Shown: in pieces, positions 13,984 through 28,839 of the stretch
How positions within the stretch are numbered: position 1 is the first letter of the stretch
How the letters are laid out: each line of letters starts with the position of its first letter
From: Myxococcota bacterium
Lineage (GTDB): Bacteria > Myxococcota_A > Polyangia > Nannocystales > Nannocystaceae
Assembly (NCBI GenBank): GCA_039028615.1
Contig: JBCCHT010000042.1
Span: 32,001-96,000, forward strand
Length of the DNA: 64,000 nt
Direction of reading: 5' to 3'
Position numbers and translations under genes: made by a program
Notes under the pieces: generated by a model
The model's database searches: none
What the model saw: only the letters and a program-made list of their open reading frames with translations
What the model was told of the DNA's origin: nothing

Positions 13984-14016
13984 GAAAAAGGGAGGCTCAG
14001 TGAGCCTCCCTTTTTC
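13984..14016. terminator. bidirectional intrinsic terminator
   Basis: Perfect inverted repeat GAAAAAGGGAGGCTCA / TGAGCCTCCCTTTTTC between convergent genes, with a T tract on each strand. Confidence 0.9.
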
Positions 14017-14042: not shown

Positions 14043-16997
14043 TCAGGTGGGGTTGCCGTCGCTGCTGGGCGGCTCGTAGTGGCTGCGATAGCGCCCCCAA
14101 AGGTCGGGCCAGTCGTCGATGCGAGCGGGGCCGCTCTCGGCCCACGACGACAGCGATAGCTGCAGCGCGCTTTCGAATTGGAACCACAGCGAGGTTTCGG
14201 AGGGCCGCGACGGGGTATCGGCGCTCTCGTCCGACTGGGCCAGGGCTTGCTCGACCGCCCGATCGACCACGCCGTGGGCGGTCATGGTCGGCGTCAGGAA
14301 GCACGCTCCCGGCTGGAACATGGAGTCCGGCCGGGCCGGGGTCCGCAGGATGCCGTTCACCTCGGTGGCCGCGTTGCGATGGAAGAAGGGCGGTCGGAAG
14401 GTGTGGGCGGTGGTGTCCCAGCGCGGCGGAAAGACGACCAGGTCGAGCCCGTTGGCCCCGCGCTCGTCGAGCGGAGCGGTGAGCACGGTATAGGCCGAGG
14501 GGTCGATGTGGTCGTAGGCCACATTGGACACGGGGGAGAACAACGCGAGGTCGTAGGCGTAGGGCGTGTAGTTGCCGTGCCACGCGACGACGTCGAAGGG
14601 GCTGCGATCGAGGGTCGTCTGATAAAGCTGCCCGCCCATCTTGGTGGTGAAGCGAAAGCCGGGATCGGGTCGGTTCTCGAACCAGGGGGTGGGCGTGCGG
14701 AAGTGCCGGGGATCGGCGAGCCCGTTGGCCCCCACCACGCCGCGATCGGGCAGCTCGAAGTGGCGGCCGTAGATCTCGCCCACGTAGCCGCGGGCGCAGT
14801 CGCCCTGGAGCAGCACGGAGAACGCGATGCCGCGGGGGATGATCGCCAGCTCGCCCGGGGCCACGTCGAGCACGCCCAGCTCGGTGCGCAGGGTCAGCGC
14901 GCCCTCTTGCGGCAGCAGCAGCAGATCGCCATCGGAGTTCTGGTAGGCGCGATGCTCCATGCTGCGGTTGGCCGCATACAGGTGGATGGCAAAGCCGCGT
15001 CGCTCGGCCGCGCGCCCCTGGCCCCCGTAGGTGTGCATGCCGTCCACGAAATCGGTGGGCGCCTCGGGGATGGCCAGCGGTCGGTGCCCCACCAGGTTGA
15101 TGGCGGGAGGTCGCAGCGCATAGTCCTCGCACAAGGTGGGGTGCAGCAGGGGGACGAAGGGGCGATGCCCCGCGGAGGGCCGGATCCGGTAGACCCAGGT
15201 CCGCAGGTTGTGCGAGCGCGCGGCGACGAAGCCAGTGCCGTTCCACTGCTCGGCATACAGCCCCATCGGCCCGCGGCGGGGGCTGTTTTGCGTGCGGGGC
15301 AGGGCTCCGGGCAAGGCCTCCACCGCGTGGGTGTTGCCGAAGCCGCTGACGCCTTCGTTGGTGGTGCCGAGCAGGAGCTCGCGGGCGCGGATCCGCTGGC
15401 GTCCGCCGATCTCGTGGATGTCGCCCGGCTCGATCATCGTCTCCACGGTCGCGCCCGCGTCGACCAGCTCGGCCACCGTCTCTTCGAAATCGGTGGCGTC
15501 GATCCACGGGTCGGCCTGCGCCACGCCGACCAAGACCGGCACCTCGTCCAGCGCGCCACCGAAGGCCGGTCGCGCGTCGGAGGGACCCACGCGAGCGCCC
15601 GCCAGCGCGATCACGGTGGCGAAGGACCCACATTCGCGGGTGAGCAGCTCGAAGGCCAAGCAGGCCCCCTGCGAAAAGCCCAGCAGGTGCACGCGGGCAT
15701 GCGGAGCCCTCTGCTCGATCCAGGCCCGCGTGGCCTCCAGGGTCCCGAGGGCGGCGTTCATGCCTTCGGCGTCGTCGGCCCACGCGGTGCGGTAGGTCGC
15801 CTCCGACCACGAGCCGCCGGGGGCCTGGGGCGCCACGATGGCCACCCCGGGCGCGTCCCCGACGATCTCCCGGGAGCGCTGCACGATGGCATCGGCCGTG
15901 GAGGCGCGACCGTGCACCGCGAGCACGACATCGTCCGCGCTCTCGAGGTCCCCGTGCACCGAAAGCGGCGGGCCGTGATCCCAGGGGCACCAGCGAACGT
16001 GTCGCGACGGTCGGCGGCCCAGCAACGCGGGCTGCACCCACGACTGCGGACCCAGCGTGTCTTCGATGGCCTCGTGCACGTCGGCCGGCGCCACGCCCAG
16101 GGCGGACAGCGACGAAGCCCCGCCCACCGCGACCAGCGTATCGAACAGGGTGGCGAGGGGGTCGGCCTCGGGCAGCGCGTCGAGAATGGCGCGGTACAGC
16201 TCGGGGGAGTGGCGGCGCATGGCCGCGATGGAGGCGGGCAGCAACGCCGCGTGCACGGCCGCGTGGGGCAGGCCGAAGCGAGCGCCCAGCACATGCACCA
16301 CGCGGTGGTGTCGGCCCATGCGGTGCGCGTCGAGGATCTGGGCGGCGGCCGAAGCCCCGCGCGCGGCCTCGACCCGCGCCTGCCGATGCCGCGGGCGATC
16401 GGCGAGCATCAGCACCGCGCGATACAGCTGAGCCATCACCGCCAGCGCCCGCTCGCGCAGCGTCTCGTCGAGCGGATCGCTCGACAGCGCGCTCATGGGG
16501 TGGGCCATGGCGTTGACGAGGCTCTGGACGGTGAGCCGCCGCGACAGCGTGTCGAGGAACTCGGGCACATAGGCCACCACGTCGGCGCGCACTCGATCGT
16601 CGCGCCCCGTCTGCTTGTTGCCCTCGTCGGTGATGCCGTAGATCCGGGTCATCTCCGAGCCGGCGTAGGTGGTGGGAATGGCCACGAAGGGCAGCGTGGT
16701 CTCCAGCCGCAGCGCCTTGGCCAGGCCGGTCGCCGACCCTCCGCCCACCGTCACGATCGCGTCCGCGTCGTGCTCACCCAGCGCCTTGCGGACCGCCTCG
16801 ACCTTGGCTCGGGGCACATGCACCTCGGCCTGCGAGAAGCGGCGGACGGTCATGCCCTCGAGGCCCGCTTCGACCTCGTCGACGAAGCGCTGCGCGGGGC
16901 CGCTGATGAGCAGCGGGCGGGCCACACCTTTGTCGCGCAGCCAGTCGAGCGCCTGGGTCAGCGCGTCGAAACCGAAATAGGTGATCGGGTCGGGCAT
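14043..16997 (-). CDS. hmgA: triple fusion: maleylacetate reductase-like Fe-ADH + phospholipase/carboxylesterase + homogentisate 1,2-dioxygenase
   Basis: GGGSATGLAK, PTTYAGSEMT, NAMAH, HHRVVHVLG (Fe-ADH/MAR); HGR...GFSQGAC...DPWI...HEI (alpha/beta hydrolase); EALPGALP...QNSP, WHGNYTPY, DHIDPS, FRPPFFHRNAATE, AHG (HmgA); one uninterrupted frame. Confidence 0.9.
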   Translation of the reverse strand: MPDPITYFGFDALTQALDWLRDKGVARPLLISGPAQRFVDEVEAGLEGMTVRRFSQAEVHVPRAKVEAVRKALGEHDADAIVTVGGGSATGLAKALRLETTLPFVAIPTTYAGSEMTRIYGITDEGNKQTGRDDRVRADVVAYVPEFLDTLSRRLTVQSLVNAMAHPMSALSSDPLDETLRERALAVMAQLYRAVLMLADRPRHRQARVEAARGASAAAQILDAHRMGRHHRVVHVLGARFGLPHAAVHAALLPASIAAMRRHSPELYRAILDALPEADPLATLFDTLVAVGGASSLSALGVAPADVHEAIEDTLGPQSWVQPALLGRRPSRHVRWCPWDHGPPLSVHGDLESADDVVLAVHGRASTADAIVQRSREIVGDAPGVAIVAPQAPGGSWSEATYRTAWADDAEGMNAALGTLEATRAWIEQRAPHARVHLLGFSQGACLAFELLTRECGSFATVIALAGARVGPSDARPAFGGALDEVPVLVGVAQADPWIDATDFEETVAELVDAGATVETMIEPGDIHEIGGRQRIRARELLLGTTNEGVSGFGNTHAVEALPGALPRTQNSPRRGPMGLYAEQWNGTGFVAARSHNLRTWVYRIRPSAGHRPFVPLLHPTLCEDYALRPPAINLVGHRPLAIPEAPTDFVDGMHTYGGQGRAAERRGFAIHLYAANRSMEHRAYQNSDGDLLLLPQEGALTLRTELGVLDVAPGELAIIPRGIAFSVLLQGDCARGYVGEIYGRHFELPDRGVVGANGLADPRHFRTPTPWFENRPDPGFRFTTKMGGQLYQTTLDRSPFDVVAWHGNYTPYAYDLALFSPVSNVAYDHIDPSAYTVLTAPLDERGANGLDLVVFPPRWDTTAHTFRPPFFHRNAATEVNGILRTPARPDSMFQPGACFLTPTMTAHGVVDRAVEQALAQSDESADTPSRPSETSLWFQFESALQLSLSSWAESGPARIDDWPDLWGRYRSHYEPPSSDGNPT

Positions 16998-17872: not shown

Positions 17873-18904
17873 CTACACGGGGCGCGGATCGGGCAACCCG
17901 GGCGGGAGCCGCTCCACGAGCAGGGCCCCTCGCACGTGCCGAACCGGTCGGTTCACCGCGCCCGGGCGACCGCCGATCTGCACCACTTGGCCCCCATCGC
18001 TCTGCGTGTTGCGAACCCCTTCCCGCAGGCTCTGCTCGTCACAGCCCACCACCACGATCATCGGGCCCACCAAGGGCAGGTCGGGCAGGGGCCAGGACGT
18101 GTGGAACAGCGCGGGGGCGAGATAGCCGCGAGGGTCACCCATGCGCTCGAGCAGCCCGCCCGGACACCAGGCTTCGACGTCGGCGTGCGCCTTCCACTGC
18201 GCGTAGGCGTCGAGGAATCGATCGCGAACGACGGGGGTGACCGGCCCGGCGAAGGACTCGGGGTCGTTGGCGGGCCCCACCGTCACGCCGACCCAGAGCC
18301 GACGGAGGTGTCGCTGTAGAAGCTCGAGGTCACCCGCCACGTAGGCGACCTTCACCCCGCGCGGGTCGACACCGCTGCGTCGCAGGCCGGTCCGCGCGAG
18401 CACGTAGGCGGCCAGCTCTCGATCGGCGTCCGAGTCGATCACCGCCACGCGTCGCTGCGGCTTGGGCACGCCGCCTTCGGTATGGCCCTCGGGCAACGAC
18501 GCGGACAGCTCGTCTTCGATCGTCAGCACGCCGGGCGCAAAGGCGGTTTCGAGGTTGCGCAGCAGATCGAGCGCCCCGGTGCAGGCATCGGGCTCACGCT
18601 GCAGCAGCACCGTCCGACCGCGACGAAGCCAGCTCCACACCGACTCGATCGACTCGAGCGGCTGACCGCGGCGCTCGATGACCCGAACGGCGGGCCCGGG
18701 GCGCGGCGCGGGCCGAGACCGGTTGAGGTCGACCACCCGGCTTTGGATCTGCCCCACCAGCTGCTCGCGATCCCACGCCACCAGCTCGAGCTGCTTGGCC
18801 AACGAGTCGGCCAGCGCATCGGCGTACAGGGTGATCAGCTCGGACAGCTCGGGGCCACGGGCACGCGCGATCGCGGCGATCTGCTTGGCGGAGGCGTCCA
18901 CCAC
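17873..18904 (-). CDS. degenerate aldehyde dehydrogenase-like protein
   Basis: VIDSDADRELAA, SGVDPRG at the G-Q-x-C position, VGPANDPESFAGPV, GYLAPALF, LVGPMIVV; truncated, no catalytic Cys. Confidence 0.65.
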   Translation of the reverse strand: MVDASAKQIAAIARARGPELSELITLYADALADSLAKQLELVAWDREQLVGQIQSRVVDLNRSRPAPRPGPAVRVIERRGQPLESIESVWSWLRRGRTVLLQREPDACTGALDLLRNLETAFAPGVLTIEDELSASLPEGHTEGGVPKPQRRVAVIDSDADRELAAYVLARTGLRRSGVDPRGVKVAYVAGDLELLQRHLRRLWVGVTVGPANDPESFAGPVTPVVRDRFLDAYAQWKAHADVEAWCPGGLLERMGDPRGYLAPALFHTSWPLPDLPLVGPMIVVVGCDEQSLREGVRNTQSDGGQVVQIGGRPGAVNRPVRHVRGALLVERLPPGLPDPRPV

Positions 18905-25620: not shown

Positions 25621-27174
25621 TCAGCGTGCGATCGCGTCCGCGATGCGAATGCCGTCGAGCGCCGCGCTCATGATCCCGCCCGCGTAGCCCGCTCCTTCAC
25701 CGCACGGGTAGAGCCCCGCCACCGACGGCGATTGCAGGCTCTCGCGATCTCGATCGGTGCGCACGGGCGCGCTGGTCCGGGACTCCACCCCCACCGCGAT
25801 CCCTTCCGCCGACACGAAGCCCGGCATGCGCTCCCCGATGCGTCGCAGCGCCTCGCGCAGCGGCAGCGCCAGCCCGCCCAGCAGCTCGTCGAGCCGAGCC
25901 GAGGCCAGCCCTCGCGGGTAGCTGCAGACCGGCAACGCCGACGAGCTCCGTCCCGCCACGAAGTCGTCGATCCGCTGCGCGGGCGCGACATAGTCCCCGC
26001 CCCCCGCCTCGTACGCCGCCGCCTCGATCCGTCGCTGCAGCTTCAACCCCGCGAACACGTCGCTCGGATCGAGGCCCGCCGCCTCGAGCTGCGTCGGTCC
26101 GACCTCCGTCACGAACCCCGAGTTCGCGTACTTGCCTCGCCGTGACGAAGGGCTCCAGCCGTTGACCACCTGTCCCCCGTGCTCCGTCGCGGCCGGCACG
26201 ATGAACCCTCCCGGGCACATGCAGAACGAAAACGCTCCCGCGCCTTCCGCCTGCTCCACCAGACGATAGGCCGCGGCTCCCAGCGCCGGGTGCCCCGCCA
26301 GCCCTCCGAACTGCAGCCCATCGATCAACGGCTGCGGATGCTCCACCCGGAACCCCACCGCAAACGGCTTCGCCGACAACGCCACCCCGGCCTCGTGCAG
26401 CCACTGCGTCACATCCCGGGCCGAGTGTCCCACCGCCAGCACCACCGCCCGCGCATCGATCGTCTCCTGCTCCAGCCGCACCCCGCACACGCGCCCGTCC
26501 TTCACCACCAGCCCATCGACGCGCCGCCCGAACGCAAACTCCACCCCCGCGCTTTCGAGATGCTCCCGCATCGCCCCCACCACGCCGGGCAGGCGATTGG
26601 TCCCGATATGCGGCCGCGCATCCACCAAGATCTGCGACGGCGCCCCGTACCCCACGAACGCATCCAGCACCCGCTGCATGTCCCCCCGCTTGTGCGATCG
26701 CGTGTACAGCTTCCCATCGCTGAACGTCCCCGCCCCTCCCTCACCAAAACAGTAGTTGCTCTCCGGATCGAGCTGCCCCTGCTTGCTCAGCGCCGCCAGA
26801 TCCCGCCGTCGTGGCCGAACCGGCTTCCCCCGCTCCAGCACCACCGACCGAATCCCATGCTGCGCCAACGCCCACGCACAAAACGTCCCCGCCGGCCCCG
26901 CCCCCACGATCACCACCCCGGGTTCCCCACTCAACGTCGGAAGATCCACCGGCCCCCGCTCACTCGAGCTCGGCTTCTCTTCCCCCCGCATCACCAACTC
27001 CACCTCCAGCTGCAGCTGCACCCGCCCCCGCCGAGCATCGATCGACTTCCGCCGAACAACCGCCGCCACAACCTCCTTCACCCCCACCTTCCCCCGCTTC
27101 GCCGCCGCCCGACGCAGCCCCTCCTCATCAAAAAGAAGATCTGGATGAACCCGCAACTGAACCCGACGTCCCAC
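25621..27174 (-). CDS. NAD(P)/FAD-dependent oxidoreductase
   Basis: IVGAGPAG, FGEGGAGTFSDGKL, PHIGTN, SFCMCPGG, GEGAGYAGGIMSAALDG. Confidence 0.92.
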   Translation of the reverse strand: MGRRVQLRVHPDLLFDEEGLRRAAAKRGKVGVKEVVAAVVRRKSIDARRGRVQLQLEVELVMRGEEKPSSSERGPVDLPTLSGEPGVVIVGAGPAGTFCAWALAQHGIRSVVLERGKPVRPRRRDLAALSKQGQLDPESNYCFGEGGAGTFSDGKLYTRSHKRGDMQRVLDAFVGYGAPSQILVDARPHIGTNRLPGVVGAMREHLESAGVEFAFGRRVDGLVVKDGRVCGVRLEQETIDARAVVLAVGHSARDVTQWLHEAGVALSAKPFAVGFRVEHPQPLIDGLQFGGLAGHPALGAAAYRLVEQAEGAGAFSFCMCPGGFIVPAATEHGGQVVNGWSPSSRRGKYANSGFVTEVGPTQLEAAGLDPSDVFAGLKLQRRIEAAAYEAGGGDYVAPAQRIDDFVAGRSSSALPVCSYPRGLASARLDELLGGLALPLREALRRIGERMPGFVSAEGIAVGVESRTSAPVRTDRDRESLQSPSVAGLYPCGEGAGYAGGIMSAALDGIRIADAIAR

Positions 27175-27316
27175 GACTTCCCCCCGTCATCTCATGAACC
27201 CGCCCCCCGGTCCATCCACCCACCACCCCCGAAGGGAACAACACCCACCCTGCTCCAAACAAGTACCCCACGGCAAAACCCACCCCATCCCCGAGCAGCA
27301 ACCAACCGACCCCTTC

Positions 27317-27644
27317 GTTCGAACATTTCCACCCACTCCAAGCACTCCCGCCCCTCACCCAAGCACCCCACCGAACCTCCAAGCAAGCCACCCCCCACCC
27401 AAGCAGAACCCACCCCACCGCCCGAACGGAAGCCGCCGTACGGGGAGGGCCAAAGCGAAGCCGCGTAGGATGGAGGGGGCCCGGTCGCGCGGAGGCGGCC
27501 GCCGACGACCGTCGAGAAACACCCGGGTATCATGGCCGCCGAGCACGTCCGGGAAGGGTTCCAGCCGTCAACAGGCGAGCCCCTGGTTCGAACACATCAC
27601 TCCCACTCCAAGCACTCCCGCCCCTCACCCAAGCACCCCACCGA
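27317..27644 (+). repeat. ~58-bp C/A-rich direct repeat (27317-27374 and 27586-27644) flanking repeat copy A
   Basis: GTTCGAACA-N-CCCACTCCAAGCACTCCCGCCCCTCACCCAAGCACCCCACCGA present twice. Confidence 0.85.
27442..27581 (+). repeat. dispersed structured intergenic repeat, copy A (REP/MITE-like)
   Basis: GCGAAGCCGCGTAGGATGGAGGGGGCCCGGTCGCGCGGAGGCGGCCGCCGA...GGCCGCCGAGCACGTCCGGG.AGGGTTCCAGCCGTCAACAGGCGAGCC shared with three other sites. Confidence 0.9.
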
Positions 27645-27711
27645 GCTCTCCGTTCGAACACTCCCCAACCCCCCTTCGCGCAACCAGAAATCCCCCCACC
27701 GCGAGCAAACT

Positions 27712-28839
27712 TCAAGACCCCGAAGAAGGCCCAGACGCCACCAACAACCCCGCCGCCACCGCCTTGCTCCGCATCGCATGCAACATCCGTCCCCGGTCCG
27801 CCGTATCCCGCCTCCACTTCCTCCCAAGCTTCGCCCGCACATCCGGGTTCAACCCCAACCTCCGAGCCCGCTTCCGAAAGTTCGCATTCGGCCCCACCGT
27901 CGCACAGTGCCCCCGCGAGAACCGACGATTCACCGTCGCATACGAATCCCCAAACCCTTGCGCCTCACACTCCCGCTGCGCCGTCCGAGCGGCCCAAACC
28001 GCGGTGATGATCGCCACCAACCCGTTGTCATCACAAAACACCCAAGGCGGCGCACTCGAATCCCAAACCGGCACAAAGTACGCCGGATTAAACCCAAAGG
28101 GCCCGTATCCAAATGCCCACGCCGGCTCCGACCCCGGCGAGACCGAGCCGTCCGTCGCCGTCACCTCGAACTCGATGATGTCGTCGAGATACGGGTTGTC
28201 GCGAAAGGTCTGCACCTGATGCAGCCGCGCCTTCGCCTTCCAGTACTCGCTGTCCTGCTTGCTCAACTTGGCCATGTGGGCCTGCAGCTCCGCCTCTTCG
28301 GTCGGCGAGTAGTGCAGGCGTCTCCATGCCGCGGTCGCGGCCTCGATGTCGGGATTGAGCACGTGCATGGCGTGCGGCCGATAGGTCGACTCCCGCATCG
28401 CCCACGCTCGAATCAGCCGCGGCTCGGCCCCCATCTCCTTGGCGACCAAGGTCACCAATTGAGAGAAGCGCTTCTCGTCGGCCTTGGTCCACGGACGACG
28501 GACTCGCTTGTAGCGACGACGACCCTCGTCATCGATCTTCACCCGCACGCGCTCGCACTGGTTGGGCGCACGACCCTTCAGGGTGGCTCCCTTGGCGGAG
28601 GCCAGCACGGGGGTGGGAGCCTCGGCGGCAGACGGAGCGCCCGCCTCGGTACCTTCGTCGGCATCGGCGGCCGCAACCACGGGCTGCGTTCGGGTCTCGG
28701 TGGCCGGATCTCCGGGGCTCGACGGAGCATCGACGTGCTCGACCTCGGCCTCCACGTGAACGACCTCGTACTCGGGCTCGCCCCCGGGGCCACACGATAC
28801 GACAGCGAAGATGCAGCCAAGCACGATAGCTCTGCCCAT
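27712..28839 (-). CDS. hypothetical lipoprotein with possible lytic transglycosylase-like domain
   Basis: VVSC lipobox; WAMRESTYRPHA resembles the SLT E-S motif. Confidence 0.65.
   Translation of the reverse strand: MGRAIVLGCIFAVVSCGPGGEPEYEVVHVEAEVEHVDAPSSPGDPATETRTQPVVAAADADEGTEAGAPSAAEAPTPVLASAKGATLKGRAPNQCERVRVKIDDEGRRRYKRVRRPWTKADEKRFSQLVTLVAKEMGAEPRLIRAWAMRESTYRPHAMHVLNPDIEAATAAWRRLHYSPTEEAELQAHMAKLSKQDSEYWKAKARLHQVQTFRDNPYLDDIIEFEVTATDGSVSPGSEPAWAFGYGPFGFNPAYFVPVWDSSAPPWVFCDDNGLVAIITAVWAARTAQRECEAQGFGDSYATVNRRFSRGHCATVGPNANFRKRARRLGLNPDVRAKLGRKWRRDTADRGRMLHAMRSKAVAAGLLVASGPSSGS

Follow-up and report, generated by a model that had tools for sequence, protein, structure and literature searches.

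Domain architecture and locus of the fusion gene

Translation of the window analysed here (the whole 64,000-nucleotide stretch of Myxococcota bacterium DNA) revealed a frame of 984 residues free of stop codons, which joins a maleylacetate reductase (MAR)-like reductase, an alpha/beta esterase and a homogentisate dioxygenase (HGD)-like dioxygenase in one chain (Table 1). Translation and Pfam assignments both agree with the initial annotation on this point, each domain scoring above its cut-off: Fe-ADH (residues 6-141), ADH_Fe_C (156-311), Abhydrolase_2 (399-532), HgmA_N (550-817) and HgmA_C (820-973). The AlphaFold model of the fusion has a pLDDT of 87.5, and fold comparison matched its residues 545-979 to HGD and its residues 1-331 to maleylacetate reductases. 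GC3 amounts to 0.90-0.92 across all three domains.

Table 1. Features of the fusion locus and of the tyrosine gene cluster of the host (positions refer to the window unless another contig is named)
Feature	Position	Strand	Basis
Three-domain single ORF: MAR-like reductase, alpha/beta esterase, HGD-like dioxygenase	14043..16997	-	translation, Pfam, homologues, model
Maleylacetate-reductase-type domain, aa 1-331	16005..16997	-	PDB matches, conservation
Abhydrolase_2 esterase domain, aa 342-541, HGR motif, S442-D496-H528	15375..15974	-	4h0c match, conserved triad, esterase signature
HGD-like dioxygenase domain, aa 548-984	14046..15356	-	Pfam, TIGR01015, alignment, structure match
Altered lid, aa 884-894, no GxYDAK tyrosine; T902-P903 at human H365-S366	14289..14348	-	alignment, loci, tree
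15-bp hairpin with flanking A and T runs, between fusion and convergent gene	13984..14016		consensus match only
Host tyrosine cluster: Crp-like gene, then FAH, maiA, hppD, short-type hmgA	L012:5897-10689, contig C1		

A search for homologues returned 555 matches in all, and each of the 120 homologues listed (47-93% identity) carries MAR, esterase and HGD in identical order. Named carriers are mostly Myxococcota, with Paraliomyxa miuraensis (WP_266214735.1) as a cultured species. Because the listed homologues, including that of P. miuraensis, share the three-domain order, an assembly artefact as the origin of the junctions is ruled out, and the three-enzyme fusion is real. One contig of sequencing run X1 crosses both junctions with zero differences, but X1 may itself be the source of the fusion DNA. 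No RNA dataset containing the fusion DNA was listed, the sole run listed being a marine metagenome. The variant type of HGD present in the fusion occurs in at least 19 of 401 genomes of the phylum and at least 16 of 73 genomes of the family. Databases label the fusion homologues as 'homogentisate 1,2-dioxygenase' or 'alcohol dehydrogenase', and in the ESM Atlas only generic HGD clusters were found.

The fusion gene lies between a convergent gene on one side and a divergent START-domain gene on the other, a synteny that is kept in three relatives of the genus. As the hairpin that separates it from the convergent gene is a probable bidirectional terminator, the fusion gene looks monocistronic in the host. 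A consensus scan gave no match to a sigma-70 promoter for this gene. Two genus-conserved neighbours, encoding a 396-aa lipoprotein-like protein (window:12774-13964) and a 343-aa protein (17873-18904), have no Pfam match at E 0.05. The segment window:26001-29000 shows weak coding scores and strong skew (GC -0.37 and AT +0.21 in 26001-28000), and is possibly a low-complexity or repeat region.

Conserved residues of the three active sites

Judged from 121 aligned proteins, the three active sites of the fusion all look alive. The esterase residues S442 (in GFSQG), D496 and H528 are invariant, which substantiates the candidate Asp and His that had been assigned to this GFSQG esterase at the outset, and the domain matches 4h0c with an E value of 5e-22. 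All 121 proteins also keep the iron ligands H873, E879 and H908, as initially read, together with H830, the equivalent of human H292. In the reductase domain, K128, N162, H231, H235, H245 and H249 are invariant and H166 is found in 120 of the 121 proteins; H230 and R232 are further residues of this domain in the fusion. The assignment as a maleylacetate-reductase-type Fe-ADH holds as well, the best PDB matches being the MARs 3jzd, 3hl0, 3w5s and 3iv7 (E 1e-42 to 3e-39) and the next Fe-ADH following at 3e-12, while structural comparison with MARs gave Z scores of 40-43.

Like PcpE, 3w5s and 3hl0, the fusion has Asn at the Fe-ADH Asp site as well as the equivalents of His172, Lys140 and the His cluster. 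PcpE has been reported to require His172 and Lys238 (PMC5741723), of which the former is kept in the fusion, whereas the latter is replaced by Arg232, at a position that varies across the subclade of the fusion (R 55, A 24, K 16, Q 8, T 6 among the 121 proteins). The surrounding motif also differs, with RHHRVVHVLGA in place of the known MAR signature LHHKLCHTLGG. A dependence of the looser Lys238 position on the esterase was considered and rejected, as K does not separate the two forms cleanly (11 of 23 triple-fusion rows against 8 of 12 MAR-HGD rows). In one genome (G419, locus L169) the reading frame is shifted at the GFSQG motif of the esterase, through either an assembly error or decay.

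A separate clade of HGD-like dioxygenases

The dioxygenase domain resembles the canonical HGDs of human (1ey2) and P. putida (3zds) in fold (Z 50-52, rmsd 2.3-2.5 A, 42-44% identity), and shares their 2-His-1-Glu iron site and the His292 equivalent. However, it scores 447.4 bits on TIGR01015, below the equivalog cut-off of 510.75, and the GxYDAK lid is absent. The lid tyrosine motif Y[DE]A occurs in none of the 121 fusion proteins, compared with 80 of 83 other loci, and the position of human His365 (residue 902) is occupied by Thr (116) or Ser (5), while His is found there in 82 of the 83 other loci. In addition, Asn replaces the Met following the Glu ligand (881), and the canonical Ala/Met are exchanged for Trp938/Gln940. 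Human HGD is described as working with His292, His365 and a Gly347-Gly355 lid (bioRxiv 10.64898/2026.06.02.729205; PMC4019311), where a role in proton transfer has been proposed for His365 (bioRxiv 10.64898/2026.06.02.729205), and for fungal PcMHQD2 the replacement of the lid tyrosine is given as the probable explanation for absent homogentisate turnover (PMC11634970). Two quick trees, built from 100 and 61 rows and rooted at the midpoint, split the variant HGDs from the canonical bacterial and plant HGDs with an SH-aLRT support of 100. Taken together, these data point to a distinct HGD clade that is mis-annotated in databases.

Lid-less HGD-like proteins are also found in fungi (Obba, Cerrena, Aspergillus multicolor and Beauveria), and these fall into another clade of the quick tree with a support of 91, in which P0266, P0289, P0291, P0299, P0317 and P0324 stand in for the MhdA and PcMHQD sequences. 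Such a placement implies convergence between the fungal and myxobacterial proteins, and since the fungal clade is separate, its substrate is not transferable to the fusion by orthology. As the fungal proteins also lack His365, loss of this residue may not mean inactivity. PDB entry 9pz4 is a further member of the HGD family without the lid Tyr and His365. A literature search retrieved no paper naming it, and the profile scores for 3zds, 1ey2 and 9pz4 (692, 657 and 493 bits with the canonical profile; 503, 525 and 480 bits with the variant profile) narrow the gap for 9pz4 without grouping it with the variant. Inside the variant clade, stand-alone HGDs with no MAR nearby (L132 of G379, L202 of G459, and P0178) make up a subclade of their own. 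Another subclade (support 99) is made up of P0259, P0265 and P0268, among them a transcript assigned to the amoeba Paramoeba aestuarina. The other members are an incomplete esterase-HGD protein and a triple fusion of 1191 aa that bears low-complexity inserts; the Paramoeba record may be a eukaryotic copy or contamination.

Gene context of variant and canonical dioxygenases

Comparison of 104 HGD loci revealed MAR at 20, the esterase at 14 and a CoA transferase at 7 of the 22 variant loci, with FAH, maiA and hppD at none, whereas the 82 canonical loci contain neither MAR nor esterase but FAH (20), maiA (14) and hppD (16); the MAR linkage in these counts is partly built in, as the variant loci were found using the whole fusion, and FAH was represented by a single type as query. 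The module occurs as a triple fusion, as MAR-esterase plus HGD, as MAR-HGD without esterase and as separate genes, MAR and variant HGD being found without the esterase at no fewer than seven loci. A 3-oxoacid CoA-transferase pair (pcaI/scoA-pcaJ/scoB) is linked to the module at eight loci, forms its own clade (support 100/99) and is the only copy in four of the seven genomes searched; this family also accepts acetoacetate, and neither family models nor PDB can separate the two substrates 3-oxoadipate and acetoacetate. In the host, the CoA transferase is unlinked and of housekeeping type, and the PcaF-like thiolase reaches 535 bits against a cut-off of 597.

Genes for an acyl-CoA ligase (six loci), a citryl-CoA-lyase-like protein, a small VOC protein and a GST-like protein (adjoining at four loci) recur beside the module at L129, L131, L133, L134, L141 and L016, and LysR is found at several loci. 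At L129, genes of this group, the fusion and the CoA transferase constitute an apparent single operon. Neither a monooxygenase nor any other methoxyhydroquinone-forming gene recurs next to the fusion at the loci examined, and the host's seven FAD_binding_3 and two FMO-like matches include no recognisable or linked upstream enzyme (the two FMO loci themselves left out).

The fusion and tyrosine catabolism

According to the initial annotation, the fusion might support an isomerase-free tyrosine route, in which homogentisate would be converted via maleylacetoacetate and succinylacetoacetate to succinate and acetoacetate. The intact HGD fold and iron ligands would suit such a route, and acetoacetate is a possible substrate of the linked CoA transferase. 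The accompanying statement that maiA and fahA are absent is correct for the window, but maiA and FAH are present elsewhere in the host genome (completeness 96.7%), within a canonical cluster that has its own short-type hmgA, whose 391-aa product scores only 52 bits on TIGR01015 (Table 1). The suggested survey of carriers covered 34 genomes, namely the host, 18 variant-HGD genomes of the phylum sample (401 genomes) and 15 of the family set (73 genomes), after three further phylum-sample genomes with MAR-esterase only had been dropped. hppD was detected in 11 of the 18 and 3 of the 15, and all these 14 genomes have maiA over the cut-off; including the host, maiA accompanies hppD in 15 of 15 cases, leaving not a single carrier with hppD present and maiA absent, while 19 of 34 have no hppD match and 15 of 34 match neither gene. 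As completeness is 71-95% in many of the family genomes, related genomes are no independent samples, and formation of homogentisate from hydroxyphenylacetates without HppD is also possible, these counts weaken the homogentisate route rather than exclude it. With the lid Tyr and His365 lost and no tyrosine genes near the variant loci weighing against it as well, we consider this route extremely unlikely.

Relation of the esterase to LinE/PcpA-type modules

All six esterases checked that are linked to LinE/PcpA-type hydroquinone dioxygenases share the signature of the esterase domain (HGR..W..GFSQG.C..D..H) at each of its 12 positions. Plasmid homologues of the esterase adjoin LinE/PcpA-type dioxygenases in all five records examined out of 60 matches, one of these being linE-linD of Sphingobium UT26. 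Three Deinococcus matches lie within genes annotated as VOC proteins. One myxobacterial cluster unites MAR, CoA transferase, thiolase and a PcpA homologue (E 1e-72) with the same esterase. The LinE/PcpA/MnpC modules (linR-linE-hydrolase-esterase-linD; mnp) resemble the fusion in having the same esterase subfamily beside a dioxygenase, and MAR, GST, LysR and CoA transferase as partners, but their ring cleaver is a VOC/glyoxalase protein instead of a cupin HGD homologue, and their MAR is unfused. No match to LinE was found in the host genome, so the HGD-like domain appears to fill the LinE slot beside the esterase. A figure legend on the pcp neighbourhood places folate C1 genes after a predicted esterase (PMC3318906), which would suit a release of methanol. 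On a plasmid of Rhodococcus rhodochrous GD02 (L240), an esterase homologue and a LinE-like dioxygenase occur with a cytochrome P450, hydrolases, a VanB-type reductase and a formaldehyde dehydrogenase, making this cluster a candidate methoxy-aromatic pathway.

Proposed function and possible substrates

From the architecture, the conserved residues, the clade and the gene context, we infer that the fusion very probably belongs to a general module that turns a 2-substituted hydroquinone into 3-oxoadipate; the hydroquinone-type catabolism named initially as an alternative is hence the option favoured by the evidence. As to the substrate of this one-chain catabolic module, we lean towards methoxyhydroquinone or a closely related methoxylated compound. 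The HGD-like domain with its Fe(II) would open the ring between C1 and C2, the latter carrying the substituent, to give maleylacetyl-X, and with X = OCH3 the product would be the stable methyl ester of maleylacetate, whose conversion would need exactly a reductase and an esterase. The MAR domain would then reduce the C=C bond using NAD(P)H and the esterase domain would take off the methyl group, in either order. The resulting 3-oxoadipate would pass to a 3-oxoacid CoA transferase for activation and then to a thiolase for cleavage.

The same three activities and the 3-oxoadipate endpoint are described for Aspergillus niger, where the HGD-family protein MhdA cleaves methoxyhydroquinone, a MAR-like reductase (candidate NRRL3_4956) is proposed to act first, and a mutant of OmeA, the esterase adjacent to MhdA, accumulates 4-oxo-monomethyl adipate (PMC8336404). 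An analogous bacterial methoxyhydroquinone route has been mentioned (PMC13094099). Nevertheless, the fungal route employs three separate proteins in place of a single chain, OmeA is a type-B carboxylesterase and not a member of the Abhydrolase_2 family, and the lid-less fungal HGD-like proteins (stand-ins, not MhdA) belong to another clade. The latter two differences count against a methoxy substituent, as do the esterase-less forms and the lack of a recurring upstream gene, whereas the loss of His365, the variable Lys238 position, the acetoacetate-capable CoA transferase and its unlinked counterpart in the host count against our best explanation.

The same module and product might instead serve a hydroquinone with an amino group (the esterase domain acting as an amidase), a halogen or hydroxy group (no hydrolase needed), a thio or glutathionyl group (via a thioester) or a methyl group, a possibility that we regard as unlikely but deserving real weight. 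The mnp cluster for aminohydroquinone offers a precedent, comprising a hydroquinone dioxygenase, a proposed amidase, MAR, GST and LysR (PMC5604080). The GST-like and LysR genes at module loci and the occurrence of MAR-HGD forms without esterase agree with such substituents. Halogenated phenols are common in marine settings, the source of the only run with fusion DNA. Nonetheless, not one of the 121 triple fusions departs from the hydrolase triad, so that a stable acyl derivative is expected, while cleavage of halo- and hydroxy-hydroquinones yields free maleylacetate; moreover, no nitroreductase, mutase or dehalogenase recurs at the module loci. Salvage of methoxylated quinol head groups from prey (e.g., ubiquinol-derived fragments) by predatory microbes appears very unlikely to us: the mostly myxobacterial carriers, the Paramoeba-assigned transcript in the variant clade, the recurring acyl-CoA ligase and the lack of a linked plant-aromatic upper pathway at module loci would fit, but the idea is pure conjecture, the amoeba record is possibly contamination, and a fully substituted ring would yield a poor MAR substrate. 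A broader version, in which the HGD clade was independently re-purposed from tyrosine catabolism into a self-contained three-enzyme hydroquinone-to-3-oxoadipate machine of predatory myxobacteria, and possibly phagotrophic protists, that digest methoxylated quinols of prey or algae and not lignin fragments, is in our view quite unlikely.

The chemistry of our preferred methoxyhydroquinone module is known in pieces, while neither the variant HGD clade nor the three-way fusion is described in the literature searched, which largely leaves out subscription journals; the same search retrieved no paper on aromatic catabolism in myxobacteria. Our finding points to such catabolism and to a mis-annotated dioxygenase clade. 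If true, it would provide a bacterial HGD-family hydroquinone dioxygenase of an origin separate from the fungal ones, and one polypeptide leading from lignin-type methoxyhydroquinone to 3-oxoadipate, which could be useful in lignin valorisation.

A second MAR-esterase fusion in the genus

All five other genomes of the genus (G445, G444, G446, G447 and G448; L186-L190) encode a second, stand-alone MAR-esterase fusion of ~590 aa with ~33% identity, to which tblastn gave no match in the host. The gene is divergent from a conserved subtilase gene. Its product looks catalytically dead, with GELQG or GEQQG devoid of the Ser, the triad His replaced by Pro and altered MAR residues, and is possibly a pseudo-enzyme or sensor.
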